Positions 1,796 through 52,744 of a stretch of DNA of 64,000 nucleotides are shown here, piece after piece; within the stretch, counting starts at the first letter, position 1; every line of letters starts with the position of its first letter. The stretch comes from Bacillota bacterium (lineage in GTDB: Bacteria; Bacillota; JAAYKD01): assembly GCA_036744005.1 (NCBI GenBank), contig DAINOJ010000012.1, positions 180 to 64,179 on the forward strand, read 5' to 3'. Below the pieces are notes generated by a model. The model saw only the letters and a list, made by a program, of their open reading frames with translations, was not told the origin of the DNA and searched no databases. The translations under genes were made by a program, and so were the position numbers.

Positions 1796-3838
1796 TTATT
1801 TGGCTATGGGTGTCACATCAATGTGCTCGTTAAACCACTTCACAATATGGTTCAAGCGATCTAAACGAAGGGTTGGTTTGCCATTACGGGATAAGTCATG
1901 GTTTGCGCCATCGAAACGGCAGAAACGAACTTCACGACCCAGTTTTTTGAGTTGGATGAAGATTTGTTCTGCTTGTTCCATGGGGCAACGATAGTCTTGC
2001 TCGCTATGGATAATCAGTAACGGGGTTTTGATGTTCTCCACATATTTCAAGGGGCTGAAATCCCACAGTTCATCCACTCCACCAAACGGAGATACATTGA
2101 GTTCGTTCTCGGTAAAGGTGTAGCCAATGTCAGAGCAGCCAAAGAAGCTCATCCAGTTGGTAATAGAACGTTGGGTCGCAGCGGCTTTGAAACGATCGTT
2201 GTGTCCAACAATCCAGTTGGTCATGAATCCACCATAGGAACCTCCGGTGACGCCCAAACGATCGGCATCAATCCAGTCCCATTTGGCTAAGGCCACATCC
2301 ACACCGGTCATAATGTCGGTGTAATCTTTGCGGCCGTAGTTGCCAATGCAAGCATAGACAAACTCTTGGCTGTAGCCATGGGAACCTCGTGGGTTCACAT
2401 ACAATACAGCATATCCTTGGGCAGCCAAAACTTGGAATTCATGGAAGAAGCCAAAGCCATACATGGTATGTGGTCCGCCATGGATTTCAACCACCATGGG
2501 GTATTTGTGTCCTTCTTTCCAACCTACCGGCTTCACCAACCACCCTTGAACATCCCAGCCATCTTCCGCTTTGTACCAGAACTCTTCGGGAACCACGATT
2601 TCGATTTCATCGGTGATATGAGAGTTCATATCGGTCAATTGAATCTCTTCTTTGGTTTCCAGGTTCAGCACAGAAACTTCGGTAATATTGGGTGTGTCGC
2701 CCCAGCCCAACGCCACCATTTTGCGATCTTCGCTGAAATCATACGCAAAAATCTGACGTTTGCCCTCGGTAACTTGGTGAATCTTCTGGGTTTTCACGTC
2801 CATATAATAGATATGGGTGGAACCATGATAATGTGCTTGAAAGTAGATGCCCGCTCTGCCTTTATCAAAGACAAAACCGTTTCCACTGTTGCCCATGCGG
2901 CAATCGGAAGCGCCGGTATCTCCAATGGGAATATCAAAATCCGCCGGGAGGATGTTCTCCGCCGGTTTACTGCCGTCGGCAGGTGCATGATAAATCTTAG
3001 CATGGGTAGCACCGGCAAATTTGCGGTCGCTGCCGGCAAAGATTAAGTGGGTTCCGCAAGGTCCCCAAACAGGACCCATAAAGGACCCTTCTTCGTGAGT
3101 AATGGCTACCGGTTCGCCGCCTTCCGCGGAAACCACATATACATCGTTTTTCCAGCCGTCCATATCGGGATCTACCGAACGGTTGCTGGTAAAGGCGATT
3201 TTGCTGCTATCGGGAGACCAGGCAATACTACCATTGTTGTAATCACCGGTGGTAATGCGTTTGGGGGTGCCACCTTTGACGTCCATCACCCAAATATGAG
3301 CGTATTTGTCGGTATCGAGGAAACCCATACCGTTCATTTTATAACGGATGCGCTCAATCACTCTGGCTTTGTCTTTGTATTGAGAAGCTAGGGCTTCTTT
3401 GTCTTTTTTCGGCAACGGGGTGCACATGACATCATCGGTATCTTTAACATCCATACGAGCGATGAAGGCGATTTTTTTGCCGTCCGGCGACCAAACCGGG
3501 TTATTGGCACCATACCGCATGGTGGTCAATTGCTGTGCTTCGCCGGCGCCGTTTTCTAAAACCCAAATCTGAGGTTCACCACTACGATTGGATACAAAGG
3601 CCACACTGCCGCCGCAAGGAGACCAACGGGGGAAAGAATCATTTTTGCCATTGGTAAACGGAGTGGGTTTCCCTTTACCGCAGGTAGGAACTTGCCACAA
3701 TTTGGATTCGTACGACTTGGTTTCTGGGTCAATGTAGGTGCCGACATAGATGATTTTCTTACCGTCCGGGGAAATTTGTGGATCTCCGGCCCATTTGATG
3801 TTCAGAAGATCTTCAATTTTCATACCGCGTTTTGCCAT
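1796..3838 (-). CDS. S9 family serine peptidase (prolyl oligopeptidase / acylaminoacyl-peptidase type) with an N-terminal beta-propeller
   Basis: 680-aa ORF with repeated WSPDGKKIAF-type propeller blades. The C-terminal alpha/beta hydrolase carries the GGSYGG nucleophile motif. Confidence 0.85.
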   Translation of the reverse strand: MAKRGMKIEDLLNIKWAGDPQISPDGKKIIYVGTYIDPETKSYESKLWQVPTCGKGKPTPFTNGKNDSFPRWSPCGGSVAFVSNRSGEPQIWVLENGAGEAQQLTTMRYGANNPVWSPDGKKIAFIARMDVKDTDDVMCTPLPKKDKEALASQYKDKARVIERIRYKMNGMGFLDTDKYAHIWVMDVKGGTPKRITTGDYNNGSIAWSPDSSKIAFTSNRSVDPDMDGWKNDVYVVSAEGGEPVAITHEEGSFMGPVWGPCGTHLIFAGSDRKFAGATHAKIYHAPADGSKPAENILPADFDIPIGDTGASDCRMGNSGNGFVFDKGRAGIYFQAHYHGSTHIYYMDVKTQKIHQVTEGKRQIFAYDFSEDRKMVALGWGDTPNITEVSVLNLETKEEIQLTDMNSHITDEIEIVVPEEFWYKAEDGWDVQGWLVKPVGWKEGHKYPMVVEIHGGPHTMYGFGFFHEFQVLAAQGYAVLYVNPRGSHGYSQEFVYACIGNYGRKDYTDIMTGVDVALAKWDWIDADRLGVTGGSYGGFMTNWIVGHNDRFKAAATQRSITNWMSFFGCSDIGYTFTENELNVSPFGGVDELWDFSPLKYVENIKTPLLIIHSEQDYRCPMEQAEQIFIQLKKLGREVRFCRFDGANHDLSRNGKPTLRLDRLNHIVKWFNEHIDVTPIAK

Positions 3839-8474: not shown

Positions 8475-8524
8475 AAAAAGAGGTCACTTCCGTTCCTAAA
8501 AATATAATCCCATTCGTGAGTAGA

Positions 8525-9439
8525 TTATCCGTGAAATAAGCGTTTGGCTGTCATGGCGTCATAATATACGGCTTGCTGATCCTGGAACATCACCCGCCAA
8601 ACCGGTTTAGCTTCCGCGATTTGCTCTGAGTTGAAAAAACTAAAATACCCAAACTGTATTTCTTTGACAACTAACCAGTTTTCACCCTGAAGCAGTTTTT
8701 GATCCCGTAAAGCGAGAATATAATCGTCTTCCAGCATGCGCAACAAAATATTGGAAGCGGGCGTCATCCATTCCACTGTGCCGATTTCTCCGACAATGCG
8801 CAAAGGATTGATGGTGCATTGCCGAACCTGATCCCCTACCACAGTCACTTCTACGCTTAAATCAAAAACCGGACGGTTATTAAAGCTTCGACAATATTGA
8901 ACCGTTTGACTCGATGATAATACACCAAGGTTCCATTGACTTTGTAAAGAGAGTCCGAAAATACTGAGTTGCAAGCGTTCTTTTAGGAATCGTTCCGCTA
9001 CCGATTGGGCAAAGTCATAGGAGATGAGGGGGGAATCTTCGGTTAAGTGGATTCCATCATTATAGTAGGTCAACAATCCGCTGGCACTTAATATGGCGTT
9101 CTCCTCGCCCGATTGAACTTGGGTAAACACATTTCCGTCATGTCCGGTAGTTTGTAGAACCTGGGGAGCTTTCCCGCTGAACAGTCGATCCAAATAATCG
9201 GACATTTGGGTTTCAGCTTTTAATTGTAAAATCGAAGCTTTGGGAATTTGGCGCGGAATGGACTGCAAAAGAGTAATCTTCTCTTCCAACAAGCGGTCTC
9301 TCACCGCAGCAATGGCTACATCTCCTCCGACACTGGCTTCCATGAGGTGCATGGGACGCAAAAAATTATAATATCCCAATACTCCGTTCAGTACCAAAAA
9401 AATCACGATGAGTACTGTTTGTGCCCGGGACCAGTTCAT
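8525..9439 (-). CDS. yycI: YycI-like WalK-regulatory membrane-anchored protein
   Basis: N-terminus MNWSRAQTVLIVIFLVLNGVL is a single TM anchor, as in YycI. It lies immediately downstream of yycH and walK. Confidence 0.6.
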   Translation of the reverse strand: MNWSRAQTVLIVIFLVLNGVLGYYNFLRPMHLMEASVGGDVAIAAVRDRLLEEKITLLQSIPRQIPKASILQLKAETQMSDYLDRLFSGKAPQVLQTTGHDGNVFTQVQSGEENAILSASGLLTYYNDGIHLTEDSPLISYDFAQSVAERFLKERLQLSIFGLSLQSQWNLGVLSSSQTVQYCRSFNNRPVFDLSVEVTVVGDQVRQCTINPLRIVGEIGTVEWMTPASNILLRMLEDDYILALRDQKLLQGENWLVVKEIQFGYFSFFNSEQIAEAKPVWRVMFQDQQAVYYDAMTAKRLFHG

Positions 9440-9468
9440 GGCATCCCCTCCTGTTATCGTCGCAGATG

Positions 9469-10857
9469 TTAGCGATTGGTGACTGCCGCCTGCATCCCCA
9501 AGTAGTCTCCATTCATCATATTATAAAACAATTTGCAGCCGTTGTAAAATTCCACAATCCAAACGGCTTGTGCCTGAGTTTGATTTTCATTAAACAAAAA
9601 TCCTTCGTAAATATCTCGTAAAGGCATTTCTTCTTGTGTTTGGTCCGGAAAGCGAATCTCCCATTGATTCCATACTCCCCACAGGATATAACTCGCACTC
9701 AGCGACAGGAATTGTCGTTGCGACGCCCCCAGAGTGGGTTCTGTAATCGTGAGAGATGTGACCAAACCCCCCTTGCTTTCCACTTGCAGGGTTCCCAAAA
9801 CATTGCGATTCCCTTCGGTCATGTAAATCGGTCTCCCATTGCTCACTAAGGTGTAGTAAGCAGCCGAAGCATTGGTGCCCACCTCCACTCCGTCAAATAA
9901 AATCTCAGACGTCTGTGGCCATAATTGCATGGCATTGAGCTTTTTGCTCATCGCTTGTATGGGTTGGTGATCACTACCAATTTGCTCTGCACTTTGCTTT
10001 AATTCCAATTGTGGAAATACCTTTTCCTCCTCTGATAAGCGCATAGTCCTCAACCCGTCGTAGTAAATGACCGCATTACTAATATCGGTAAAACTGCGAA
10101 TCATGGCGGTATCATCGAAGAACCGCCCGGCCAACACATCCAAATCCAAAGTGATTGGCTTTCCGCTATCTCGCGCTGCAACGTAAGGGTTTTGACGATA
10201 CGAGTAGATGGGATTTGTTGCCACAAAATCGTAAGGTGTGATATCAATTTCGGTCAAAGCATAATAAACACTGTTTTGAGTGACTTCGAGAAGGTTGTAA
10301 ATAACTTCTGCTTGACTGGGCACCGGCAGACGATAAACGAGATGGTTCTCTCCATCTTCTAGTATTACGTAATCATTTTGGTATCCACTAATATAAAGAC
10401 GATTGACCATAGGTAGGTTGGTTTCTTCCCCAATCAATTCAATTTGCAAGACCTCACAGAAATGTTTTAGGGAGATGGGAGCCGGTAAGATCATGTCTAT
10501 ACCCACTTCGGCAAAAGTCCAGCTAGCTTTGTCTACTACAGTCAGATCCTTTGGATCGAGGTGTTCCAAGGTTTTTAGGCTGCCTTTGAGTACCGTACTC
10601 CATATGGTTTGATAATAAGCAGAACTGGAGCGCAATAACGCCAAATCGCCATTGGGCAAATGAGCAATCATACGGGGAGGAGCGATGACGCGAACGGGAT
10701 CTTGATTCAAGCTGGTGGAAGCCGCATTCTCTTCGGGTGCTTGAACTTTTCGATAGGTGTCTTGGCTCTGGTTCATTAAGATGGTAAATTGCCATAAACT
10801 TATAGCAACCAAAACGATAAGCAACGGCGTACGGATTCTCTGCAAAATACGTTCCAT
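9469..10857 (-). CDS. yycH: YycH-like WalK-regulatory protein
   Basis: The call rests on position after walK. Its N-terminal TM anchor is RIRTPLLIVLVAISLW. The start was set to ATG 10857 (M15 of the track ORF), which overlaps the walK stop in typical coupled fashion. Confidence 0.55.
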   Translation of the reverse strand: MERILQRIRTPLLIVLVAISLWQFTILMNQSQDTYRKVQAPEENAASTSLNQDPVRVIAPPRMIAHLPNGDLALLRSSSAYYQTIWSTVLKGSLKTLEHLDPKDLTVVDKASWTFAEVGIDMILPAPISLKHFCEVLQIELIGEETNLPMVNRLYISGYQNDYVILEDGENHLVYRLPVPSQAEVIYNLLEVTQNSVYYALTEIDITPYDFVATNPIYSYRQNPYVAARDSGKPITLDLDVLAGRFFDDTAMIRSFTDISNAVIYYDGLRTMRLSEEEKVFPQLELKQSAEQIGSDHQPIQAMSKKLNAMQLWPQTSEILFDGVEVGTNASAAYYTLVSNGRPIYMTEGNRNVLGTLQVESKGGLVTSLTITEPTLGASQRQFLSLSASYILWGVWNQWEIRFPDQTQEEMPLRDIYEGFLFNENQTQAQAVWIVEFYNGCKLFYNMMNGDYLGMQAAVTNR

Positions 10858-10859
10858 GG

Positions 10860-12800
10860 CTATATCTCCGCTCCGAAGTGCTCGGGCTTGGGGAACCATA
10901 TCCGCACCGTTGTTCCAAATCCATATTCGCTGTCCAAATGTATGCGCCCACCATGACTGTCTACAATTTGGCGAGCAATGGATAAGCCCAGTCCATTTCC
11001 ACCTCGTTCTCTTGAACGAGCTTTATCCACCCGATAAAAGCGTTCGAATAACCGAGCCATTGCCTCTTTGGGGATACCTATCCCAGTATCCTCAACCACA
11101 ATTTCATTACCTTCTTCTCGAGCGGTTAAGGTAAGGGTAATTCTGCCTTTGGCGGGAGTGTACAAATTGGCATTCGCCAAAATATTAATGAGCACTTGTT
11201 GAATTTTATCTTGCGCAGCGTAGATTTTAACTTCGCTTTCCGGCAGTAGTATGCTAAAGTCCTGCTCTTTTGAAGCAAATTGAGGGCTCATGACGTCGGC
11301 AACGTTACGTACAATTTCCTTCAGGTCTTGGATAAAGTATGGTTCGCGTTTAGAAATGCTGTCCAAACGAGTCAAATACAGAAGATCGTTTACCAAACGA
11401 GTCATGCGGTCGGTTTCGTTGATGACAACACCCAAAAAGCGTTGAGCCAGCTCCGGTTCCTCCAATGCGCCATCTTTTAAGGTTTCTACATAGGTTCTCA
11501 CCGTGGTTAAAGGAGTGCGTAGCTCGTGAGAAACATTGGCAACGAAATCGCGGCGCATTTCTTCCAGTTTGTTTTCTTCTGTCATATCCAGCAATACTAT
11601 AACCACCCCGGAGCATTCATTGCTTCTTGTGGAAAAAGGTGCAGCATGTGAGCGCAAAATCAAATCCTCTGCTTCCTGCTGACTTACTTTCACCTCTTTG
11701 GTTACTGTCTCGTTTAACATCAGTGCCTGTCTCCAGGCAAAATCGTAGGTGTCAGGTGGTAACAATTCGTCTAAAGGTCTGTTGGTCGTTTCACCGGAGA
11801 TACGAAACATGGCACTAGCAGCTGGATTCATATGGATGATTTGACCTAGATTGTCAATCGCAATGACACCCTCTGTCATAAAGTTCAACATCGCTTCCAT
11901 TTTGCTTTTTTCATCCGCAATTTCTTCCAAAGTATCGCGCAACCGCAGAGTGAGGGTGTTAAACGTTTTTCCCAGTTCACCAACCTCGTCTTCCGATTGT
12001 ATATTGATTTGACTGTTAAAGTCACCCGCTGCCATTTCTTTCGCTCTTGCGTTGAGGACACGAACCGGGCCGGTAATGGTGCCTGCTAGTCCGGAAGCAA
12101 CCAAGGCGATGATGATCATAGAGCCAAAGGTCGCAGCGACCACCAAAGAACGGACATGACCTAAATTGCTGGCAATGCCACTGATTCCACTTTCAACGTA
12201 AATCAACCCGAGTATGGTCCCCTCATAGCTCACCGGAAACGTGAGAATTTTCATATCCTGAGTGGTTTTGTCCGGCTTTACATATTGAATTCTGGTTTCT
12301 TTGGATTCTCCGCTCAAAAGGGTTTGATTCAATAACGAATAATCTACAAATTCCAAAACATTGATACCTACAGTTTTCGCAACGGGTTTCAAATCGGAAT
12401 CCAGAACTGCCAGTTGAAAACTATCTCCCTGAGTCTCTCGCTCCAACGGAGCGGAAGCCCGAACTAAAATGCTGAGATTTTCCTGTAACACCACCATGGT
12501 TGCTGCAAAATCATCTCGCTGCTTCTGCAAAGCTGCTAGTGCTGCCGGTGAATAGGCTTCATCGGCTTTCATCTCTGTGATTTGACGGTCTAAATCCTTG
12601 AGCGTGCGATCGCGTAGCAAAAATTCCCGGGCCGAGAATTGCAGGGGAAATGTTGCCTGCTCCATGGTCCGGGTATGCGTTTCGTTATAAAAGCTTTCCA
12701 GGCTAACCCATAGATATAGCCCTATAAAAAGCATGGCTGCCATCATGAGGAATAACATAATCACAATCATGCGACTGCGGATCGATTTAAACCAACTCAT
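10860..12800 (-). CDS. walK: Cell-wall-homeostasis sensor histidine kinase WalK
   Basis: 646-aa ORF with two TM segments around an extracellular loop, then HAMP, PAS, a HisKA H-box (SHELRTPLTT) and HATPase_c N/G boxes. It sits directly downstream of walR. Confidence 0.85.
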   Translation of the reverse strand: MSWFKSIRSRMIVIMLFLMMAAMLFIGLYLWVSLESFYNETHTRTMEQATFPLQFSAREFLLRDRTLKDLDRQITEMKADEAYSPAALAALQKQRDDFAATMVVLQENLSILVRASAPLERETQGDSFQLAVLDSDLKPVAKTVGINVLEFVDYSLLNQTLLSGESKETRIQYVKPDKTTQDMKILTFPVSYEGTILGLIYVESGISGIASNLGHVRSLVVAATFGSMIIIALVASGLAGTITGPVRVLNARAKEMAAGDFNSQINIQSEDEVGELGKTFNTLTLRLRDTLEEIADEKSKMEAMLNFMTEGVIAIDNLGQIIHMNPAASAMFRISGETTNRPLDELLPPDTYDFAWRQALMLNETVTKEVKVSQQEAEDLILRSHAAPFSTRSNECSGVVIVLLDMTEENKLEEMRRDFVANVSHELRTPLTTVRTYVETLKDGALEEPELAQRFLGVVINETDRMTRLVNDLLYLTRLDSISKREPYFIQDLKEIVRNVADVMSPQFASKEQDFSILLPESEVKIYAAQDKIQQVLINILANANLYTPAKGRITLTLTAREEGNEIVVEDTGIGIPKEAMARLFERFYRVDKARSRERGGNGLGLSIARQIVDSHGGRIHLDSEYGFGTTVRIWFPKPEHFGAEI

Positions 12801-12824
12801 GGATTGTCGCCCCTTTATTTCGCG

Positions 12825-13541
12825 TTACGAGCCTTTCGGGTTGAATAAATACCCGACTCCGCGACGGGTTTCAATGTATTGGGGGGAAGAAGGGTCGATT
12901 TCCACTTTTTCACGAAGCCTTCGCACCGTGACGTCGACGGTACGACCGTCGCCAAAAAACTCAAATCCCCATACCTTTTGTAACAATTCATCTCTGGAAA
13001 ACACCCGCCCGCTGTTTTGAGCCAGGAATTTTAGTAATTCAAACTCGCGAAGGGTCAAGTCCAGTTTTTTACCAGAGCGCCGAGCTTCCACTAAATCTAA
13101 ATCAATAATCAATTCGCTAAACTCCAAACAATTGGATTGCACTTCACCGCTTGCTGTCACCGTGGGCATGCCGAATCCTTTGCTACGGCGTAAAAAGGCC
13201 TTGATTCTTGCCGATAATTCCCGGACACTAAAAGGTTTGGTAATGTAATCGTCTGCACCGGCGTTTAATCCGTTGACTAAGTCCAATTCGTTATCCTTCG
13301 CTGTTAACATGATGATGGGTATGGTCAAATCTTTGCGTAATTGCCGGCACACACTCACTCCGTCCAACTTAGGTAGCATGATGTCCAACAGAATCAGCTC
13401 CGGCTGAAATTCGGAAGCCATAGTAAGTGCGTCTTCACCATCGTAGGCAATTTCCACCCGATAACCATCTTTTTCGAGATTGTACTTAATAATCTCTGCA
13501 ATGGGTTTTTCGTCTTCCACTACTAAAATTCGTTCTGCCAT
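12825..13541 (-). CDS. walR: OmpR-family response regulator WalR
   Basis: Receiver domain (ILVVEDE..D..LLD..LP) followed by a winged-helix domain. The start was set to M10 (MAERIL...), which has the RBS AAGGAGGTG 9 nt upstream and gives a 238-aa protein. Confidence 0.9.
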   Translation of the reverse strand: MAERILVVEDEKPIAEIIKYNLEKDGYRVEIAYDGEDALTMASEFQPELILLDIMLPKLDGVSVCRQLRKDLTIPIIMLTAKDNELDLVNGLNAGADDYITKPFSVRELSARIKAFLRRSKGFGMPTVTASGEVQSNCLEFSELIIDLDLVEARRSGKKLDLTLREFELLKFLAQNSGRVFSRDELLQKVWGFEFFGDGRTVDVTVRRLREKVEIDPSSPQYIETRRGVGYLFNPKGS

Positions 13542-13604
13542 TTGGGGTAACACCTCCTTGAACTGCAAAGGTAATATTTCGCGATGCAGGGACTTCTTCC
13601 CTTC

Positions 13605-19883: not shown

Positions 19884-19902
19884 TTATAGAATCCTTCTAT
19901 AA
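19884..19902 (+). promoter_or_regulatory. Palindromic operator candidate upstream of the selenoperoxiredoxin gene
   Basis: Perfect inverted repeat TTATAGAA tcc TTCTATAA lies in the intergenic region 5' of the peroxiredoxin gene. Confidence 0.3.
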
Positions 19903-20072
19903 CAGGAAGGGTTCTTATTTATTGTTAGAGAAGAGTAACAATGCAAGAAATAAGGAGGTGGTTATTTATGCCAACAGATTTCAAGCCTGGATGCGTTCGT
20001 CCAAAGTCCTCGGTTCCTGTATCCGAGCCCATACGTGTGGAGGAAAACACCAAAAACAAGGAGGTTATTCCC

Positions 20073-20681
20073 ATGATTAAAGTAGGAGCACCTGCACCGG
20101 ATTTTGAATTGTCCGGGTATTTCCAAGGTGGGTTTAAAACCTTCCGTCTTTCCGAATTTAAAGGACAATGGGTTGTCTTATGTTTCTACCCCGGAGACTT
20201 TACCTTTGTCTGAGCGACGGAAGTATCTGCAGTTGCAGATCAATATCCCAAGTTCAAAGAGTTAGGTGTAGAAGTTCTTTCCGTTAGTGTAGATAGCGTC
20301 TACGTCCACAAAATGTGGAACGACAATGAATTGTCTAAAATGGTTGAAGGCGGCATCCCATTCCCCATGCTTTCCGATTCAGGAGGGAGAGTGGGTACGT
20401 TATTCAACGTTTATGATGCCGATGCCGGAGTAGAAAACCGTGGCCGCTTCATCATTGATCCCGATGGAATCATTCAAGGTTATGAAGTTCTGACCCCCCC
20501 GGTAGGTCGTAATGTATCTGAAACCATTCGTCAGGTACAAGCCTATCAATTGGTTCGTGAATCCAAAGGCACCAAAGCGACCCCTTCCGGCTGGAAACCT
20601 GGTAAGTCGGTGCTTAGCCCAAGTCCTGAACTGGTTGGAAACGTTTGGAAAGTCTGGAGTGTCAAAGAAGAATCCAAATAA
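20073..20681 (+). CDS. Selenocysteine-containing peroxiredoxin (AhpC/Prx1 family); in-frame UGA at 20211-20213 encodes the peroxidatic residue
   Basis: Track ORFs 19941..20213 and 20313..20681 are in one frame with TGA as the only interruption. Translation reads [38 protein letters not shown].., where the TGA sits exactly at the conserved peroxidatic Cys of the FTFVCPTE motif. RBS AAGGAGG lies 7 nt upstream of ATG 20073. A terminator follows the TAA at 20679-20681. Confidence 0.75.
20225..20240 (+). other. Bacterial SECIS-like hairpin downstream of the UGA codon
   Basis: AUCUGC-AGUU-GCAGAU (6-bp stem with a G/U-containing tetraloop) begins 11 nt 3' of the UGA. This is the expected window for a bacterial SECIS element. 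Confidence 0.55.
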
Positions 20682-20697: not shown

Positions 20698-20738
20698 AAA
20701 AGGGTACTAGAATTGATTTCTAGTACCCTTTTATTATG
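20698..20738 (+). terminator. Rho-independent terminator (bidirectional) after the peroxiredoxin gene
   Basis: Perfect 13-bp stem AAGGGTACTAGAA / TTCTAGTACCCTT, then TTATTAT. It also abuts the 3' end of the convergent GNAT gene. Confidence 0.75.
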
Positions 20739-31933: not shown

Positions 31934-34849
31934 ATGAAGTTACGGAAAATGTGGCTCAACATCAATGGCGTCAACCGTATTTTTATCTGCAATCCGGAAA
32001 AGGATTCTTTAGCCGATGTTTTGCGGCGTATCGGTCTAACAGGCACCAAAATCGGATGCGGAACTGGGGTTTGCGGCTCCTGCTCTGTGATTCTCGATGG
32101 GGAAGTCATTCGTTCTTGTGTGCGAAAAATCAAAACGGTCAAAGAATACAGCAAAATTATCACCATTGAAGGAATCGGTACCCCTACCTATCAGCACCCC
32201 TTGCAAGTAGCATTCATGAATTGCGGTGCAGTCCAATGTGGTTTTTGTTCCCCAGGATTCATTGTCGCTGCTTATGCTCTCTTAGAAAAGAACAACAATC
32301 CCTCCCGTAACGAAGTACGTCAATGGTTCCAAAAGCATCGCAATATTTGCCGTTGCACCGGGTATAAGCAAATCGTCGACGCGGTCATGGCCGCTGCCAA
32401 AGTCGTTCGCGGTGAAGCTACCATCGATGAGATTACCTTCCAATTGCCGGAAGACAACGAATACTACGGCAAACCTCTTGTTCGCCCCAATGCTTTGGCT
32501 AAGGTAACCGGTACTGCCGATTATGGTGATGATCAGGAATTAAAAATGCCTGCGGAATCCTTACATGCCGTTATGGTACAACCCCGTGTGGCGCATCACG
32601 CTAAAATACTAAAAATAGATACAGAAGAAGCTTCCCAAATGCCCGGAGTCGTCAAAATCGTGACTCATAAAGAATTGAAAGAAGCCGGCGGCACCAATGT
32701 GATGGCGGAAGGTCAATTCCACGAAAGAACCACGGTTATGGTACCTAGCCGCAAAGTGTTATGTGAAGATCGAATTTATCGTTATGGCGATGCTGTTGCC
32801 GTTGTGGTGGCGGACACCAAAGATCATGCCCGTGCTGCTGCAGAAAAGGTAAAAGTAGAAATCGAACAACTTCCTGAATACTTGAGTTATTTGGAAGCCG
32901 TTATGCCCGATGCCATACGCATTCACGAAGATACCCCCAATATTTTCTGTGTTCAGCCCACTCTGAAAGGTGTAGGGTTGGAAGATCCCAACAAAGTAGC
33001 AGAAGTCATTGATGATTCTGTTTATAGTGTGGAGGGAAGTTTCCACTCTACCCGCGAACCCCATCTTTCTGTTGAAGGCGATACCATTCAGGCTTACTTT
33101 GATGAAGAGGATAATTTAACCTTCCAATGCAAATCCCAGGGTGTTTATTCCTCCTTAGGTCGTATTGGTGACTCTTTGGGCGTTCCCAAAGCCAAAATGC
33201 GCATCATTATGAACCCTACCGGTGGTTCATTTGGCTGGTCCACGAATGCCGGGGATTTGGTCTTAGCCGGTGCTGCCGCCGTTGTCACCAAAATGCCGGT
33301 TGCACTTTCCATGACCTATGAAGAGCATCATCATTACAGCGGGAAACGCTGCCCCTCTTATTCCAACGCTCGTTTGGCTTGCGATGCTGCCGGGAAAATC
33401 ACAGCAGCAGAGTTTGATTTTGGATACGACCATGGTGCTTATTCTTGGGGTGGAGACGACTTAATCACCAAACCGGCACGATTTGCTTTCTTCCCTTATA
33501 GCATTCCCAATGTAGCCGGATTATCAAGAATTGCCAATACCAACCATAACTATGGTACTGCATATCGTGCTTATGGCTCACCACAAGCATATACAATGGG
33601 CGAGGCCATGATGGATCTGCTTGCTGAAAAAGCAGGTATCGATCCGTTTGAGTTCCGTTGGAGAAACATTGCCAGAGAAGGCGAAACCAATATCAATAGC
33701 TATCCGTTCCGTCAATACCCCATGGAAAAAATCATGGAAACCATGAAACCTCATTACGATCGAGCTGTAGCCGAAGCGAAAGCTGCGACAACACCTGAAA
33801 AACGTCGAGGAGTCGGCCTTTCATGGGGTGGTTTTAACGTAACAGAAGGTGGTACCGATAAAGCGACAGTAGCCCTTGAGATTGCTCCAAATGGTATGTT
33901 CTACAAGTATGATACCTACCAAAACTTGGGACAGGGCGGAGACATCGGCTCTTTAATGCTGACTCTTGAAGCGTTAAAACCATTGAAGGTAAAGCCGGAC
34001 CAAATACGTCTGATCCAAAACGATACGAAGATCTGTCCGGATAGCGGTATGTCGGGTGCCAGCAGAACCCATTTCATGAGCGGTAACGCCACGAAAATTG
34101 CCGGAGAAAAACTCATGGATGCCATGAGAAAGCCCGATGGAACTTATCGAACCTATGAAGAAATGGTCGCCGAAGGGCTACCGACCAAGTATGAAGGGAC
34201 CTTCTCCAATACATCCATCCCCGGGCTATGTCGATTAGATCCCAACACGGGAATCGGTGATCCCACTCCGGCTTATACTTACATTTTAAATATGGCAGAA
34301 GTGGAAGTCGATACTGCTACTGGGAAGACAACTGTGCTTCGCTTTACTGCTGTTGACGATGTAGGTAAAATTGGCAACATTGATGCCGTAAACGGTCAGG
34401 CTTATGGCGGTATCTCTCATGCAATTGGTTTTGCCTTGAGCGAAAATTATGATGATGTCAAAAAGCATACCAATCCCTTGACCAGTGGAGTACCCTATAT
34501 TCTGGATATTCCCGATGAAATTGAAGTCATTCACTATGAACGTCCCGATGAAGCAGGTCCCTTTGGATCCTCTGGTGCTTCTGAGGCCTTCCAATCTTCT
34601 GGTCATGTTGCCGTATTGAATGCCATCCACAACGCTTGCGGTGTTCGTATTTACGAAATGCCCGCTACCCCAGAGAAGGTCAAAGCCGGTCTCGAAATTC
34701 TGGCTAAAGGCGGCAAAATTCTGCCAACCAAATACTTCCTTGGCTCTGATCTCTATGAAGAGCTAGAGAACATCAAAGCCAACCCTGTCAAAGTCGGGGC
34801 TGAAGATTACTTCGTGCCGTTGGGTACCGGAGCAGAAAAATTCTTCTAA
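31934..34849 (+). CDS. Xanthine dehydrogenase family molybdenum hydroxylase with fused N-terminal [2Fe-2S] domains and a molybdopterin-binding catalytic domain (no FAD domain)
   Basis: 971-aa ORF. N-terminal plant-type ferredoxin cluster motif CGTGVCGSCSV and second cluster motifs CGFCSPG..CRCTGY are followed by aldehyde-oxidase/XDH a/b hammerhead and Mo-cofactor-binding regions. RBS GGAGG is 7 nt upstream. Confidence 0.85.
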   Translation: MKLRKMWLNINGVNRIFICNPEKDSLADVLRRIGLTGTKIGCGTGVCGSCSVILDGEVIRSCVRKIKTVKEYSKIITIEGIGTPTYQHPLQVAFMNCGAVQCGFCSPGFIVAAYALLEKNNNPSRNEVRQWFQKHRNICRCTGYKQIVDAVMAAAKVVRGEATIDEITFQLPEDNEYYGKPLVRPNALAKVTGTADYGDDQELKMPAESLHAVMVQPRVAHHAKILKIDTEEASQMPGVVKIVTHKELKEAGGTNVMAEGQFHERTTVMVPSRKVLCEDRIYRYGDAVAVVVADTKDHARAAAEKVKVEIEQLPEYLSYLEAVMPDAIRIHEDTPNIFCVQPTLKGVGLEDPNKVAEVIDDSVYSVEGSFHSTREPHLSVEGDTIQAYFDEEDNLTFQCKSQGVYSSLGRIGDSLGVPKAKMRIIMNPTGGSFGWSTNAGDLVLAGAAAVVTKMPVALSMTYEEHHHYSGKRCPSYSNARLACDAAGKITAAEFDFGYDHGAYSWGGDDLITKPARFAFFPYSIPNVAGLSRIANTNHNYGTAYRAYGSPQAYTMGEAMMDLLAEKAGIDPFEFRWRNIAREGETNINSYPFRQYPMEKIMETMKPHYDRAVAEAKAATTPEKRRGVGLSWGGFNVTEGGTDKATVALEIAPNGMFYKYDTYQNLGQGGDIGSLMLTLEALKPLKVKPDQIRLIQNDTKICPDSGMSGASRTHFMSGNATKIAGEKLMDAMRKPDGTYRTYEEMVAEGLPTKYEGTFSNTSIPGLCRLDPNTGIGDPTPAYTYILNMAEVEVDTATGKTTVLRFTAVDDVGKIGNIDAVNGQAYGGISHAIGFALSENYDDVKKHTNPLTSGVPYILDIPDEIEVIHYERPDEAGPFGSSGASEAFQSSGHVAVLNAIHNACGVRIYEMPATPEKVKAGLEILAKGGKILPTKYFLGSDLYEELENIKANPVKVGAEDYFVPLGTGAEKFF

Positions 34850-34936
34850 AAACAAACATCAACCACCGTTGGGGAGGGGATGCTTTACCCACAATGGGCG
34901 AACATCTCCTCCCTCCCCCATATAAAGGAGGATACG

Positions 34937-37126
34937 ATGCGCGAATTTCAAGAAATTCTCAAAGATTGTTTACGTGACGAACCTCCTTTTTGTACATCGG
35001 TTTGTCCATTTGACTTAGATATTCGAGATTTTATCGTTAAGTTACAACGAGGTAGTTTCAACGGAGCATTTCGTTTGTATCAGAATACAGTGGGATTCCC
35101 TGGAATTGTTTCTAAAATTTGTCCCCATCCCTGTCATAACGCTTGTATTCGTAAACAAACCGATGAAACGATTGATTTGCAACGACTGGAACAAGCTGCT
35201 GTATCTTTTGCGAACAATACCACGCCAAACCGTTATTTCTTGCCGGCAAAAGGAAAGAAAATTGCCATTATTGGTGCAGGTCTGGGTGGTTTGGGAGCTG
35301 CTTTGCGTTTAACCGCCAGAAAATATGACGTTGAGATGTACGAAAAAAGCTCTCGACTTGGTGGAAGTCTCTGGAATCTGCTACCCCCTGAAGATTTTCT
35401 ACCCGATATTCAAAAACAATTTGAAAACGAGCAGTTCACCATTCACTTCAATACAGAGATAACTTCTTTCAATCAAATCTCTGCCGATGCCATATTGATT
35501 GCCACCGGTTCAAAGGGACCTACCTTTTCAGATCAACCGGGTGTGTTTCGGTGTGCAACCGGTCACCCTGTAGAAGCGCTTGCTTCAGGATTGGTTATGG
35601 CCGGTGCTATAGAAGGATTTTTGAAATCCGGAGTGATGCGTTTGCCGGAACCAAAACCACCCACTCGTTTGGTCATGGACCCACAGTTCATTCATCCCTT
35701 GCCGAGTACACTTTCACCCAATGGAACACTCAGCAAAGAGGAAGCTATTACAGAATCTCGAAGATGCCTAAAGTGTCAGTGTGATGCTTGTATACGCCAC
35801 TGTGACTTAATGAAGTTTTACGGGAAAGCTCCAAAGCGTATCGAAGAGGAAGTGGAGATCACCATTCATCCCGGCACATTAGATGGAAACGGAACCGTGG
35901 CGACACGACTCATCGCCACTTGTAATCATTGCGACGTTTGCAAGCTCGTTTGTCCTCAGGGCATCGATACCGGGGCGTTCTTGTTACAAAGTCACCGTGC
36001 CATGGAAGAAAAAGGAGCCATGCCTTGGGTCTTCCACGAGTTTTGGTTAAGAGATATGAACTTCTCCAATGGTGAGGAAGCTGCTGTTCGTTTTCAACCG
36101 CCAGGATACTCAGCCTCCCCTTGGATGTATGTACCCGGCTGCCGTTTAGGTGGCAGTGACCCGAATTATGTGTTACATAGTTATGAATACATGCTTCAGG
36201 AAGCCCCCAACACCGCGTTGTTGCTGAATTGTTGTGGTGCACCGGCTCTATGGGCAGGGCAGCAACCGGTTTTTGAACAGACATTGAATCAAATCCGTGC
36301 AGATTGGATCTCGTTTGGAAAACCCACTGCTGTTTTTGCTTGTAGTACGTGTCAAAGAATCTATGGAGATTATTTACCGGAGATTCCCGGGGTTTCCATT
36401 TTCGAGTGGATGAACGAGCGTCATTATACCCCACCCCTAAAGGAAAATCTTCCTGTATGTGTCTTTGATCCTTGTCAATCGGCGGGACACCCGGAAATAC
36501 AGCAAGCGGTTCGCGATTTGGTCCGTCGGAGTGGTCACAACATTGCTCAAGAATTGGATCTTCCTCTATGCTGCGGCTGGGGGGGGCAAGTTTCCATTGC
36601 AAATCCAAAATATTTTGAAGGCGTGGTTCGTAGTCGGAGTGCGGATAGTACTCTTCCCTATGTGACGTATTGCGCCAATTGCCGAGATGTATTTGCCTCT
36701 TCTGGTAAATCTGCCTTTCACATCTTTGACCTATTATTTAGATTAAACCATACCCCCGAATCCTCAGCCGAGTTGCGTGGCGCGCCCAGTCCCAGCTTAT
36801 CTCGGCAAAACCGACGTCAATTAAAAACGCAGCTGTATCAACGTTATTTTGGGGAGGAATGGAAGATGTCTCAACCTCAACTTCGCTTACTCATTCGGGA
36901 AGAACTTAAGGAGAAACTGAATCGTTCCATGATACTTATCGAAGATTTGGAATCCGTGGTGGCTTATTGCGAGAAGACCGATGCTAAAATTCAGCATTCC
37001 GATGGTAGCTTTTCCGGGTATTTAATGATTGGTCAAATGACGTTTTGGGTGCAGTATCGCCTTTGTGATCAGGGGTTCATCTTGGAAAATGCTTATTGTC
37101 ACCGGATGCAGATTGGAGAGTCTTAA
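34937..37126 (+). CDS. Multidomain oxidoreductase: GltD/DPD-like FAD-binding module, two 4Fe-4S ferredoxin motifs and two C-terminal CCG domains (HdrD/GlpC-like)
   Basis: N-terminal Fe-S region (CTSVCP...CPHPCHNAC). FAD dinucleotide fold (KIAIIGAGLGGLGAA). 4Fe-4S motifs (CLKCQCDACIRHC and CNHCDVCKLVCP). CCG motifs (LLLNCCGAPALW, LPLCCGWGGQ). Start at ATG 34937 with RBS GGAGG 5 nt upstream. Confidence 0.7.
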   Translation: MREFQEILKDCLRDEPPFCTSVCPFDLDIRDFIVKLQRGSFNGAFRLYQNTVGFPGIVSKICPHPCHNACIRKQTDETIDLQRLEQAAVSFANNTTPNRYFLPAKGKKIAIIGAGLGGLGAALRLTARKYDVEMYEKSSRLGGSLWNLLPPEDFLPDIQKQFENEQFTIHFNTEITSFNQISADAILIATGSKGPTFSDQPGVFRCATGHPVEALASGLVMAGAIEGFLKSGVMRLPEPKPPTRLVMDPQFIHPLPSTLSPNGTLSKEEAITESRRCLKCQCDACIRHCDLMKFYGKAPKRIEEEVEITIHPGTLDGNGTVATRLIATCNHCDVCKLVCPQGIDTGAFLLQSHRAMEEKGAMPWVFHEFWLRDMNFSNGEEAAVRFQPPGYSASPWMYVPGCRLGGSDPNYVLHSYEYMLQEAPNTALLLNCCGAPALWAGQQPVFEQTLNQIRADWISFGKPTAVFACSTCQRIYGDYLPEIPGVSIFEWMNERHYTPPLKENLPVCVFDPCQSAGHPEIQQAVRDLVRRSGHNIAQELDLPLCCGWGGQVSIANPKYFEGVVRSRSADSTLPYVTYCANCRDVFASSGKSAFHIFDLLFRLNHTPESSAELRGAPSPSLSRQNRRQLKTQLYQRYFGEEWKMSQPQLRLLIREELKEKLNRSMILIEDLESVVAYCEKTDAKIQHSDGSFSGYLMIGQMTFWVQYRLCDQGFILENAYCHRMQIGES

Positions 37127-37127
37127 A

Positions 37128-37331
37128 ATGGAACAGAAAACAGAAAAAGAACCCTTAATCTGCCATCGATGTCAGATGCCATTAATGGAAACGAAAACTT
37201 TTTTCAAGTATCTGGGTCACAGTTTTCATACCGATATCCCTACCTGTCCCAAATGTGGATTGGTTTATATTTCTGAAGCATTGGCGAAAGGACGCATGGC
37301 CCAGGTGGAACAGGAATTGGAGGACAAATAA
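37128..37331 (+). CDS. Small YgiT-type zinc-finger protein
   Basis: 67 aa with CHRC...17...CPKCGLVY, matching the MqsA-N-terminal/YgiT zinc ribbon pattern. RBS GGAGAG is 7 nt upstream. It begins 2 nt after the upstream stop. Confidence 0.5.
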   Translation: MEQKTEKEPLICHRCQMPLMETKTFFKYLGHSFHTDIPTCPKCGLVYISEALAKGRMAQVEQELEDK

Positions 37332-38626
37332 TGCCCGAGATACTGCGTCATACCTATAGCCTTTGTCCGGTATGTCAAAAAAAACTGGAAGCCGTTTATG
37401 TCCGTCGAGACGTTGCGGTATGCTTTGAATTAATTTGCCCAACACATGGCTCCTTTTCCACTCCGGTCTGGTATAATCGTGTCAGCGGAGCTGCCTGGAC
37501 AAATGTAGAGGACGAACTGACCGTTCCTCCACCCTGCCCGGATGCCTGTGGGTTATGCCCGGAACATCGCCAGGATACCTGTTGTGTCGTTTTGGAAATC
37601 ACCAAACGTTGCAACCTTACTTGTCGTTTCTGCTTTGCCGATGGAGGCAAAGGGGAGGATGTACCATTTGCCAACTTGCAACAAGCGTTTGCCGACATGG
37701 TGAAACAATCCAAAACTTTGGTACAGCTTTCGGGAGGAGAACCGACTCTGCGAGAGGATTTACCTCTAGTCATTGAAGCGGCAAAAAAAGCCGGCTTGCT
37801 GTATGTGCAACTCAACACCAACGGGTTGCGCTTAGCAGAAGATCCTGCTTACGCCATACGTTTGGCGAATGCGGGTTTATCTTTTGTCTTTTTGCAATTT
37901 GACGGTCTTTCTTCTTCGGTTTATGAGTCACTGAGAGGGCGCGACCTTCTCGAGTTAAAAAAACAGGCCATAGCCCATTGCAATGATGCTGGCTTAGGAG
38001 TCACCTTGGTGATGACAGTGGTTCCCGGTGTTAACGATCAGCAAATCGGTGATGTTTTACAGTTTGCTTGGGAACAATCTCCGGTCATTCGGGGTGTTAA
38101 CTTACAACCTGTTAGCTACTTTGGTCGCACTCCCAATTCCACCTCTCCTTTTGAACATCTTACCCTAGATACCCTAGCAGAAGAAATCGAAAAGCAAACT
38201 CACGGTGTTATTCCATCATCGAAACTTTTTCCAGCTCAGAATGATCATCCCTTATGCGGATTTCACGGAGACTTCGTGATCACATCAGAAGGTTTGCCGA
38301 AAGCGCTTTCGATGCCATCCAAAAAATGTACTTGTGGTAAAGGCTTAGTTTCTTCGGTTCCCAAACGCGAATTTTTGGCCAGAAGATGGCAAAGGAAACC
38401 TTCCATCTTTGACGGGAACCAAACACACCAAAGTCATGATTTGTTTGATTTGGAGTATTTTGCTCAACGAGTTCAGAGCCATGGTTTCACGATTACAGCA
38501 ATTTCGTTTCAGGACGCCGAAAATCTTGATTTGGAGCGCTTACAACGATGCCGTTTACATGTCTATGACCAAGGACGCATGATTCCTTTCTGTGCCTATT
38601 ATTATACCCCTCGGAGGTTGTTATGA
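37331..38626 (+). CDS. Radical SAM enzyme with an N-terminal zinc-ribbon/Cys-rich extension
   Basis: CX3CX2C motif RCNLTCRFC. MoaA/NifB-like core motifs (SGGEPTL, NTNGL). An N-terminal CPVC...CPTHG plus CPDACGLCPEH region; additional C-terminal cysteines. Confidence 0.8.
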   Translation: MPEILRHTYSLCPVCQKKLEAVYVRRDVAVCFELICPTHGSFSTPVWYNRVSGAAWTNVEDELTVPPPCPDACGLCPEHRQDTCCVVLEITKRCNLTCRFCFADGGKGEDVPFANLQQAFADMVKQSKTLVQLSGGEPTLREDLPLVIEAAKKAGLLYVQLNTNGLRLAEDPAYAIRLANAGLSFVFLQFDGLSSSVYESLRGRDLLELKKQAIAHCNDAGLGVTLVMTVVPGVNDQQIGDVLQFAWEQSPVIRGVNLQPVSYFGRTPNSTSPFEHLTLDTLAEEIEKQTHGVIPSSKLFPAQNDHPLCGFHGDFVITSEGLPKALSMPSKKCTCGKGLVSSVPKREFLARRWQRKPSIFDGNQTHQSHDLFDLEYFAQRVQSHGFTITAISFQDAENLDLERLQRCRLHVYDQGRMIPFCAYYYTPRRLL

Positions 38627-39243
38627 GTGTGCGCGAATCAACACCCGATTGTTTGAGACCGGGTGGTCTTACTCTAACTGAACTGGGTATTCTTCAATGT
38701 GGGTTTCACGAAGGAGCTACTTTGGCAGATATTGGTTGCGGAAACGGAATCACGGTTGAGTATTTACTACGAAAAGGATATATGGCATATGGCGTAGATT
38801 TGCATGCCAAATCTCCATACATACGAGGGGATGCCGGTCAATTGCCATTTGACAATGAATCCATGGATGGTTTGCTCTACGAGTGTAGCTTTTCCAAGAT
38901 GCAACACACCGATCAGGTTTTAGCGGAAGCTCGCCGTGTCTTAAGCAAGAAAGGAAAACTTTTGCTGAGTGATTTCTATGCACGCGGTGTTTCAGCCGAT
39001 TTTCAAGGGTTATTAGGTCGGGTTGAGAGCGCGGATGAGATTCAACAACGTTTTCGAGCAGCCGGATTTCGTCTTACGTATTGGACCGACGCCAGTCAGG
39101 ATGTACTGCAAACGTTTGGACAACTCATTTTGAACCACGGCTGCATAGAAACGATTCTCGGTGCGAACCGAGAACAAATGAAGGCGGCTAAGTGTGGGTA
39201 CTTTTTATCCATATGGGAGGTTGAGCATGTACTCGGGAATTGA
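38623..39243 (+). CDS. Class I SAM-dependent methyltransferase
   Basis: Motif I DIGCGNG and overall Methyltransf_11-like pattern. Its start overlaps the radical SAM gene stop. Confidence 0.75.
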   Translation: MSVRESTPDCLRPGGLTLTELGILQCGFHEGATLADIGCGNGITVEYLLRKGYMAYGVDLHAKSPYIRGDAGQLPFDNESMDGLLYECSFSKMQHTDQVLAEARRVLSKKGKLLLSDFYARGVSADFQGLLGRVESADEIQQRFRAAGFRLTYWTDASQDVLQTFGQLILNHGCIETILGANREQMKAAKCGYFLSIWEVEHVLGN

Positions 39244-40378
39244 AAACTGGATTCTGAAACGATGTGGCTTAGCCTCTTTTCAAGACCTAGAAGATTGGCA
39301 GCAGGATCAATTGGCACGACAAACAGACTATGCCAAGCGCTCCTTGTTTTATCGTAACGGGTTGAGAGGTTTTACTACATCCGACGATCTTCGTTCCAAC
39401 CCCTTACAGTTCCTATGTATACCTCCTAAAGAAGTATCCCGAATTACTACCTTACCCACTTCAGGTACCAGCGGCGTCTCCAAAAGAGTTTTTTTCTCAG
39501 AAGAAGACCTTCAACTGACCGTAGAGTATTTTCATGTCGGCATGCAAGAGCTCATGGCTCCACAACAAAAAGCAGCGATATTTATGCCGGGAGCAACACC
39601 TGGGAGTGTAGGTGATTTGTTAATTCAAGCTATTGAAGGCTTTGGAGGAGAAGCTGCCGCGTACGGGTTCATACGAAATCCTTATGATGCTCAAATTCAG
39701 GCCGCTGATGCCGACTGTTTATTGGGGCACCCCATACAACTATTGACCTTGTCCCGTATCGCTCCTCACTTACGTCCCAAATCGGTTTTATTGACCGGCG
39801 ATCCTGTCCCTGCTTGGCTAATAACCGAAATGGAACAAACTTGGAGTTGTCGTATCCACCCTCATTACGGTCTGACAGAAAGCGGCTTTGGTTTAGCCGT
39901 CCGCGGAAAAGATGGCTATGGCGAACAAATATGCCATCCGTTTATTCGATTAGATATTATGGATCCTCAAACCGGTACGCTTGTACCCGATGGCGAGTGG
40001 GGTGAAATCGTTTTATCTACATTAATGCGCCAAGCGATGCCACTACTTCATTATCGCACCGGGGATTGCGGTCGCTGGCTTCCCGATACCTATCCAAAAC
40101 GGCTTGATATCCGACAAAGTCGCATACAACAGCCACAGTTAGAGCGCAACTTCACCATTCACCATTTAGACCAAGCGGTCTTTTCGATAAAAGATGTTTT
40201 CTACTATACGGCAACGTTGAAAAAAGAGGGATTACTTCTTACCATTGACTCCCCAGCAGAGTATCACGATATTTCGGTGGCGTTGAAAAACGTATTACAC
40301 CTTTCTATTCCTTGGCACATTGAGAAAAAAAAGATGCTTTGTGAACCAGGGAAACGAAAGATTGCAATAGAAGAATAA
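39227..40378 (+). CDS. PaaK-like adenylate-forming enzyme (phenylacetate-CoA ligase / coenzyme F390 synthetase family)
   Basis: AMP-binding P-loop TSGTSGVSKRV. Start at ATG 39227 with RBS GGGAGG 6 nt upstream. Length is about 383 aa. Confidence 0.7.
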   Translation: MYSGIENWILKRCGLASFQDLEDWQQDQLARQTDYAKRSLFYRNGLRGFTTSDDLRSNPLQFLCIPPKEVSRITTLPTSGTSGVSKRVFFSEEDLQLTVEYFHVGMQELMAPQQKAAIFMPGATPGSVGDLLIQAIEGFGGEAAAYGFIRNPYDAQIQAADADCLLGHPIQLLTLSRIAPHLRPKSVLLTGDPVPAWLITEMEQTWSCRIHPHYGLTESGFGLAVRGKDGYGEQICHPFIRLDIMDPQTGTLVPDGEWGEIVLSTLMRQAMPLLHYRTGDCGRWLPDTYPKRLDIRQSRIQQPQLERNFTIHHLDQAVFSIKDVFYYTATLKKEGLLLTIDSPAEYHDISVALKNVLHLSIPWHIEKKKMLCEPGKRKIAIEE

Positions 40379-40390
40379 GGAGGAGAAATC

Positions 40391-40705
40391 ATGGAATTCA
40401 AAAACGCTACGGTTGTAGCAAAAGCGAATATCTACTTCGAGGGCAAAGTAACCAGTCGAACCATTTTTACCGCGGAAGGTGTGAAGAAAACTTTAGGAAT
40501 CTTCTTGCCCGGAGAATACCGTTTTCAGACGGGAGCCGAAGAGCTTATGGAGATTTTAGCAGGCAGAGTAGATATTCGTTTGTCCGGAGAACAAGTGTAT
40601 ACCCTCTATACTGCAGACACACACTTCAACGTTCCAGCGAATTCATTTTTTGACTTAAAAGTCTATGAAGTCACCGATTATTGCTGTACTTACTTGGAAG
40701 CATAA
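40391..40705 (+). CDS. ppnP: Pyrimidine/purine nucleoside phosphorylase PpnP (DUF1255 cupin)
   Basis: 104 aa with NIYFEGKV...GEYRF.T...E.M.I..G...DW..Y.AG..F.VP..S.F.L.V.E.T.YCC.Y pattern matching YaiE/PpnP. RBS GGAGG. Confidence 0.75.
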   Translation: MEFKNATVVAKANIYFEGKVTSRTIFTAEGVKKTLGIFLPGEYRFQTGAEELMEILAGRVDIRLSGEQVYTLYTADTHFNVPANSFFDLKVYEVTDYCCTYLEA

Positions 40706-40793
40706 CGGTCATCATGAACCCGGCAGACATCTGCCGGGCTCTTACAAGCAATCGTTATGTTTTCAAATACCATTCGAAGAAAGGAGACCTTCT

Positions 40794-41759: not shown

Positions 41760-41772
41760 TGGAGGAGGACGC

Positions 41773-50423: not shown

Positions 50424-50441
50424 TTGCTAAACTCCCCCTTT

Positions 50442-52394
<1,953 letters not shown>

Positions 52395-52687: not shown

Positions 52688-52744
52688 AAATTGTGCATAA
52701 GTTGTTCCTTGCAATAAGAAAGCTCCGCAATAACGGAGCTTTCT

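Follow-up and report, generated by a model that had tools for sequence, protein, structure and literature searches.

An in-frame UGA codon at the peroxidatic position of a PrxU-family peroxiredoxin gene and its conserved downstream hairpin in an uncultured Bacillota bacterium

The prxU locus and its protein family

We analyzed a 64,000-nucleotide stretch of DNA from an uncultured Bacillota bacterium (GenBank assembly GCA_036744005.1, contig DAINOJ010000012.1, positions 180 to 64,179), hereafter called the window, and in it the peroxiredoxin gene prxU, which probably encodes a protein with selenocysteine (Sec) at its active site. A mechanical listing of open reading frames (ORFs) gives two entries at this locus, 19941..20213 and 20313..20681, both in the same frame. 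Translation of 19941-20681 contains one internal stop, and the frame from 19968 to 20681 is single, its sole break being TGA 20211-20213; an earlier note made from the sequence alone had described the two ORFs and the TGA between them. That note also expected automatic annotation to split such a gene, which is what GenBank holds: the N-terminal half is deposited as MPM89699.1 (“hypothetical protein”) and the C-terminal half as MPM89700.1 (“Selenocysteine-containing peroxiredoxin PrxU”).

The most likely start of prxU is ATG 19968, not 20073 or 19941. ATG 19968 is preferred because it is conserved and preceded by AAGGAGG, whereas ATG 19941 is not conserved and reads ATT in the closest relative (locus L008). 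A motif resembling a Shine-Dalgarno (SD) sequence lies upstream of the long start in most relatives, and gene callers in independent assemblies likewise begin the 81-residue N-terminal fragment at 19968. The start at 20073 that had been proposed earlier survives as a conserved internal ATG (discussed below) but not as the only start, since 19968 is conserved too.

Protein searches were run with Cys substituted for the TGA stop. Against the NCBIfam equivalog NF040737 (peroxi_PrxU; cutoff, 270 bits), the long form scored 385.4 bits over profile positions 2-232 of 233, and the short form beginning at ATG 20073 scored 373.9 bits over positions 35-232. The AhpC equivalog TIGR03137 gave only 175 bits, under its cutoff of 272. 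Pfam matches of the read-through protein were AhpC-TSA, Redoxin, and 1-cysPrx_C. The best matches in the PDB were Prx1-type 2-Cys peroxiredoxins (AcePrx-1 [4fh8], human Prx2, tryparedoxin peroxidases, and AhpC), with 124 to 158 bits over residues 38-226; residues 1-37 were covered by no structure. The Sec position aligned exactly to the peroxidatic Cys of the motif DFTFVCPTE in 4fh8 and 7kj1, here FTFV-U-ATE. The earlier assignment of the TGA to the peroxidatic Cys of an AhpC/Prx1-type protein is thus upheld, both by the PrxU profile and by these alignments.

Typical 2-Cys and AhpC proteins are recognized by a C-terminal resolving Cys in an (E)VCP motif, which the window protein lacks. The site reads KATPSGW, compared with EVCPAGW in 4fh8 (the 7kj1 chain, which is a mutant, has EVSPAGW), and has the form [AV]TP[SA]GW in almost all of the 120 closest homologs; the absence of this Cys, already remarked on in the earlier note, is therefore correct for the window protein. 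The PrxU-specific residues Cys9, Cys72, and Thr205 are all present and are invariant or nearly so in the relatives. A few relatives with a Sec codon (P0081 and P0098) keep a Cys at the resolving site, as ACPAGW or ACPSGW. In one other homolog, P0036, the Sec position is occupied by Gly (FTFIGATE), perhaps through mutation or because the codon was called differently.

Conservation of the UGA codon and the downstream hairpin

To compare loci, one genome per GTDB species was scanned with an alignment that covered the gene 3′ of the TGA. Relatives were found in at least 597 genomes, and the locus comparisons below concern the best 80 of these. This breadth, together with the fifth rank of the Sec-peroxiredoxin family among bacterial selenoproteins in a 2006 genome survey, does not agree with the earlier view that Sec-containing peroxiredoxins are rare. 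TGA occupied this codon in 79 of the 80 loci, and the 80th (L070) is a 5′-truncated copy. In L070, positions 2701-3120 hold only the part of prxU that follows the active site, joined to unrelated, stop-rich sequence; truncation of the gene or a chimeric assembly would account for this. Carriers of the TGA belong to the Clostridia, Desulfobacterota, Spirochaetota, Nitrospirota, Acidobacteriota, Fibrobacterota, Cloacimonadota, and Caldithrix-like bacteria, among others. No GTDB representative matched at 100% identity; the best match was a metagenome-assembled genome of an uncultured member of the Eubacteriales (93% identical).

We considered first the possibility that prxU is a pseudogene, produced by a recent TGY-to-TGA nonsense mutation or left as a relic after loss of the Sec machinery, and now yielding only a truncated N-terminal peptide. 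The two separate ORFs of the gene callers and GenBank would fit such a history, as would the fact that Sec machinery is not seen in the 64-kb window. However, TGA is kept across the 79 loci, including all four closest relatives (85 to 93% amino acid identity), in which TGC or TGT codons would, according to the earlier note, have pointed to a recent mutation. Against L008, the closest relative (93% amino acid identity), the ratio of nonsynonymous to synonymous differences (pN/pS) was 0.060 in the 46 codons upstream of the TGA and 0.059 in the 150 codons downstream, and synonymous sites approached saturation. Equal ratios on either side of the UGA indicate the same purifying, protein-level selection on both sides over a long time. 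In addition, the terminator sits after the full-length ORF, prxU with the same TGA is 100% identical in four independent metagenome assemblies (exact fragments of the gene are present on 33 to 38 contigs), and the hairpin described next is fully intact in stem and loop here and decayed in Cys-containing forms of the protein. We therefore regard a pseudogene as very unlikely. By the evidence of these comparisons, the UGA is ancient and not a lesion.

A hairpin of the type AUCUGC-AGUU-GCAGAU follows the UGA, with 11 nt between UGA and stem and 17 nt (20214-20230) between UGA and loop. It lies where the earlier note had located a bacterial selenocysteine insertion sequence (SECIS), an assignment that covariation now supports. 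The hairpin alone (20 nt) has a modest folding energy of −7.3 kcal/mol (z = −3.3), a stability reached by 1 of 200 shuffled sequences, and the 40 nt from the UGA, with the lower stem included, reach −9.5 kcal/mol. We aligned the 48 nt from the TGA, gap-free, for the window and 78 relatives, and the hairpin was in register in all 79 sequences. Columns 15 and 30 paired as UA (42), AU (20), CG (14), and GC (2), and columns 18 and 27 as GC (45), AU (22), UA (10), and CG (1), with no broken pair at either site. The pair that closes the loop, columns 21 and 24, covaried perfectly (AU, 46; GC, 32), and the inner loop G and U were invariant. Across the alignment, 98.6% of cells were paired, compared with 37 to 70% in controls in which the 3′ partners were slid by 1 to 3 columns. 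The covariation score was 0.443 (shuffled, 0.129 ± 0.013; reached by 0 of 500 shuffles), and RNAalifold predicted the same six pairs. Taken together, the compensatory changes, the absence of broken pairs among those that vary, and the invariant loop G-U identify the hairpin as a bacterial SECIS.

Could the hairpin instead follow simply from conservation of the peptide E-[VI]-S-A-V-A-[DE], without being an RNA element? The peptide does show good conservation, and several bases of the stem occupy codon position 1 or 2. The covarying bases, however, lie at the synonymous third position in codons for Ser, Ala, Val/Ile, and Asp/Glu, so the signal cannot stem from the peptide. The third base of Ser pairs with that of the second Ala in all four Watson-Crick combinations, the third base of Val/Ile pairs with that of Asp/Glu, and neither pair is broken in 78 distinct sequences; the perfectly covarying bases that close the loop are third positions as well. 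Four Cys-form homologs with the same peptide (L090 to L093) allow a direct comparison. These keep 5/6, 3/6, 6/6, and 4/6 of the stem pairs, respectively, with loops GGUA, CUUG, GAUC, and GGUC. Three of the four have broken pairs, and the loop G-U is lost in L091 and L092, although L092, with its complete stem, could be taken to favor the peptide. The hairpin thus appears relaxed in Cys forms, a small sample that differs in the expected direction, and the partial hairpins are consistent with Sec-to-Cys conversions of different ages. An origin of the hairpin in peptide conservation is, in our estimate, very unlikely.

The hairpin also agrees with published limits for bacterial SECIS elements, which comprise an apical loop of 3 to 9 nt with G in its first two positions followed by G or U, a stem of 4 to 16 bp, and a UGA-loop spacing of 16 to 37 nt (PMC13188914). 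The window hairpin has a 4-nt loop in which U follows G and N1 and N2 pair, a 6-bp stem, and the 17-nt spacing. The published model further asks for a folding energy of at most −7.5 kcal/mol; the hairpin by itself lies at −7.3 kcal/mol, and the 40 nt with the lower stem lie at −9.5 kcal/mol. Like the elements of the Zhang and Gladyshev model, as summarized in PMC13188914, it lies directly after the UGA, inside the coding sequence, and combines a small N1-G-U-N2 loop, with N1 and N2 pairable, with an upper stem in the 6- to 7-bp class. It differs from them in that the stem has no obvious bulged U and in that the hairpin alone reaches only −7.3 kcal/mol. Its loop, AGUU, also differs from the GGUC loop of the E. 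coli fdhF type, which does occur in relatives of the window gene.

In the proposed mechanism, UGA 20211-20213 would be read as Sec owing to the 6-bp hairpin 11 nt downstream in the mRNA. The apical loop N-G-U-N′ would present its invariant G-U to SelB carrying Sec-tRNA(Sec), a contact that we infer from the established mechanism of bacterial SECIS elements. Sec82, as a selenolate in the P-x3-T-x2-U pocket with the family-conserved Arg, would then reduce H2O2 or an organic hydroperoxide and, if it follows peroxiredoxin chemistry, would be converted to a selenenic acid.

A further alternative, which we consider extremely unlikely, is that this organism decodes TGA as Trp or Gly, both standard amino acids, under genetic code 4 or 25. 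In its favor, Trp stands at the Sec position in 108 of the 120 closest database proteins (10 have Cys), but these Trp residues come from gene callers, the hosts cover many phyla that use the standard code, and Trp at the peroxidatic position would be expected from peroxiredoxin chemistry to abolish catalysis. Such an origin is confirmed for homolog P0055, whose DNA carries TGA and whose deposited protein is not reproduced by table 11 translation. In the window itself, TGA closes 6 of 35 large ORFs and Trp is encoded in prxU as TGG, five times, from which we conclude that the genetic code has not been reassigned. Reading of TGA as a sense codon by gene callers on short metagenome contigs is a systematic annotation artefact (P0001 to P0120; L088, positions 1001-1723).

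Several observations weigh against a Sec-encoding gene. Over 66 nt of surrounding sequence, the stability of the hairpin does not stand out (z = −1.7), and Rfam scans, at gathering thresholds and in permissive mode, matched no SECIS family, the hits being two tRNAs elsewhere and chance microRNA (miRNA) models. Neither selA, selB, selD, nor tRNA-Sec was present in the 64-kb window according to ARAGORN, Rfam, and Pfam labels, nor was a second selenoprotein gene found there; Sec decoding by this genome is thus something we infer. Finally, the recycling step and the two-isoform idea set out in the next section are drawn from conservation only. Weighing all of this, we assign a probability of about 0.92 to the reading that 19968-20681 is one functional PrxU-family gene encoding a thioredoxin-fold protein of the Prx1/AhpC class with a peroxidatic Sec.

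Table 1. Coordinates of prxU and its associated elements in the window
Feature	Coordinates	Strand	Description
Long-form Shine-Dalgarno AAGGAGG	19952..19958	+	9 nt before ATG 19968; kept in L008
prxU full coding sequence	19968..20681	+	237 codons including Sec82; stop TAA 20679-20681
Cys9 (TGC)	19992..19994	+	N-terminal arm motif G-C-x-R-P
Internal Shine-Dalgarno AAGGAGG	20058..20064	+	In frame, 8 nt before ATG 20073
Internal ATG (Met36)	20073..20075	+	Candidate start of short 202-residue isoform
Cys72 (TGT)	20181..20183	+	VLCFYP strand, 10 residues before Sec; Phe in Prx2 and AcePrx-1
UGA, Sec82 (Sec47 in short-form numbering)	20211..20213	+	Peroxidatic residue of P-x3-T-x2-U
SECIS hairpin	20225..20240	+	Stem 20225-20230 with 20235-20240; apical loop AGUU 20231-20234
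Thr205 (ACC)	20580..20582	+	Stands where 2-Cys peroxiredoxins have their canonical C-terminal resolving Cys
Intrinsic terminator	20698..20732	+	15-bp stem then T-rich tail, 17 nt past the stop codon

N-terminal arm, candidate internal start, and proposed recycling of Sec

The long form of the protein carries an N-terminal arm of 35 residues (19968-20072) ahead of the internal Met. Where relatives have sufficient sequence upstream, the frame is open, with a single exception, back to a Met followed by G-C-x-R-P. All 77 of 77 relatives carry the arm Cys (TGT, 39; TGC, 38) and the Pro (77/77), and 76 of 77 carry the Arg, encoded by both CGN and AGR codons. Across phyla (L008 to L087) the pattern is M-x4-8-G-C-x-R-P(TGGPVGE) followed by a variable linker, with 27 to 34 residues between the arm Cys and the internal Met; the consensus outside the Firmicutes is GCARPTGGPVGE. 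Third positions of the arm codons are near maximal entropy and first and second positions almost fixed, which indicates that the arm is translated and selected and is not a spurious extension. In an AlphaFold2 model of a Cys-form homolog, the linker has a predicted local distance difference test (pLDDT) score below 50, whereas the first ten residues average about 75, with a beta-bridge at residues 3-4; the model hints that the arm motif docks on the catalytic domain. The arm was found in Cys-form PrxU members too and is therefore a trait of the PrxU family rather than of the Sec form.

The internal start is conserved as well. The Met codon is ATG in 76 of 78 loci, and GGAGG occurs 5 to 11 nt upstream of it (within 17 nt) in 65 of 78, compared with a frequency of 2.1% among 17-nt windows from the coding sequence farther downstream in these genes. 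The internal site prefers AAG-GAG-G over AAA-GAA, the reverse of the preference elsewhere (at the last Glu of the arm motif, GAA outnumbers GAG by 36 to 18). This reversed codon preference suggests that the RNA itself is selected here and that the internal ribosome-binding site is real. Judged from sequence conservation, prxU appears to have two ribosome-binding sites (19952-58 and 20058-64) and may give rise to two isoforms, a long one that includes the arm and a short one that lacks it.

How would the enzyme be recycled? Because the resolving Cys is replaced by Thr205, recycling must proceed through a direct reductant or through a Cys that is invariant in the family. Cys72 is invariant in alignment A3 and in the loci inspected, and the earlier suggestion that loss of the canonical resolving Cys implies a non-2-Cys mechanism does not follow, since the invariant Cys9 and Cys72 remain candidate resolving residues. 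In the route that we favor as the more likely hypothesis on grounds of conservation, Cys9, on its flexible arm, or Cys72 would attack the selenenic acid to form a selenenylsulfide, which thioredoxin would then reduce. An analogy is offered by mammalian selenoprotein MsrB1, in which the resolving Cys is unique to the Sec form (PMC1278935). MsrB1 and the window protein are both Sec enzymes without the resolving Cys of their Cys-type relatives, and in both another Cys near the N terminus is available for a selenenylsulfide to thioredoxin. The two proteins are unrelated in fold and reaction, however, and the MsrB1 Cys is specific to the Sec form, whereas the PrxU arm, for which the role is a candidate one, is not.

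A broader proposal, which we hold only tentatively and consider somewhat less probable than its negation, is that two PrxU isoforms exist across phyla, a long form whose arm Cys would resolve or protect the Sec and a short form corresponding to the classical 22-kDa PrxU. No description of the N-terminal arm or the internal start was found in the searchable literature, although the arm lies within the NCBIfam profile. Only the Cys-bearing arm and the conserved internal start might be new.

Genomic surroundings and relation to known systems

Upstream of prxU, a terminator-like hairpin (19888-19915) follows the preceding gene, and prxU lies between this hairpin and the terminator at 20698-20732. 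With its own terminator 3′ and the terminator-like hairpin of the upstream gene 5′, prxU forms a monocistronic unit. Weak matches to Rfam miRNA models at the 3′ end of prxU stem from the same terminator hairpin. Between the upstream hairpin and the prxU ribosome-binding site lies a perfect palindrome, ATTGTTA-N8-TAACAAT (19921-19942), the core of which (TGTTAGAGAAG..TAACA) is kept in L008 despite saturated synonymous sites between the two genes; from this conservation it is a candidate operator or promoter element.

No gene family adjoins prxU in more than 7 of the 80 loci. In one sewage-metagenome lineage, an 87-residue glutaredoxin gene is encoded divergently about 350 nt upstream of prxU (L088, 385-648; L089, 386-649), and this glutaredoxin could be the reductant partner there. 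The arrangement was seen in that lineage only, and no glutaredoxin gene lies next to prxU in the window.

A six-frame scan for in-frame TGA codons with at least 45 open codons on each side returned prxU as the only credible case in the window. The radical S-adenosylmethionine (SAM) “(seleno)protein” TrsS was considered as a second selenoprotein and rejected: its gene has no internal TGA, and read-through of the terminal TGA leaves the score at 475.2 bits. TrsS (475 bits, just below the cutoff of 490; no Sec codon) belongs to a complete cluster of the DVU_1551..DVU_1559 type at 31934-43822. The cluster also contains genes for a molybdopterin aldehyde oxidoreductase (1151 bits), a “diclust_near_Sec” oxidoreductase, a DVU_1557-family redox protein, a DVU_1556 methyltransferase, a DVU_1553 AMP ligase, an XdhC-like maturation factor, and a DVU_1551 NTP transferase that is split over two ORFs. 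Farther along, gyrA, gyrB, recF-like, dnaN, dnaA, rpmH, rnpA, yidC, jag, mnmE, and mnmG occupy 47976-63277, a gene set that marks the window as the replication origin region of a Firmicutes-type chromosome. Genes resembling walRK/yycHI lie at about 8500-13600.

The main finding is already known in kind, Sec-peroxiredoxins having been known since 2001 and being widespread in anaerobes. PrxU of Eubacterium (Peptoclostridium) acidaminophilum, reported by Söhling and colleagues in 2001 (Biol Chem 382:979), shares with the window protein a Sec in T-x-x-U and the lack of a canonical C-terminal resolving Cys. The purified E. acidaminophilum protein is reported to have 203 residues with Sec47, which would match the short form encoded in the window (82 − 35 = 47). 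The gene model in the window adds the 35-residue arm with its invariant Cys, which the 203-residue protein is not known to have; the NCBIfam PrxU profile (233 positions) includes the arm. The hosts also differ, that of the window being an uncultured Clostridia/Eubacteriales bacterium of anaerobic bioreactors and wastewater. Sec-peroxiredoxin is among the experimentally supported prokaryotic selenoproteins.

Compared with typical 2-Cys Prx1/AhpC proteins (4fh8, human Prx2 1qmv/7kj1, and Salmonella AhpC 1n8j), the window protein belongs to the same fold class and shares the motifs YP-x-DFTFV-[C/U]-x-TE and GRF-IDP and a 1-cysPrx_C-like C-terminal region. It differs in having Sec for the peroxidatic Cys, Ala for the Pro that follows, Thr205 for the resolving Cys, Cys72 for Phe, and the extra N-terminal arm.

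These results bear on annotation and on the biology of the family. A single selenoprotein gene, 19968..20681, with a transl_except for Sec at 20211-13, should replace the two fragments that GenBank now lists. The Trp shown at the catalytic residue in most public translations of homologs is a pitfall when metagenome protein catalogues are mined. The comparative set assembled here provides an unusually clean example of SECIS covariation. For the organism, prxU marks the host as very probably Sec-decoding, and for the family, the Cys-bearing arm and the internal start could explain how a Sec-peroxiredoxin is recycled without the usual resolving Cys.

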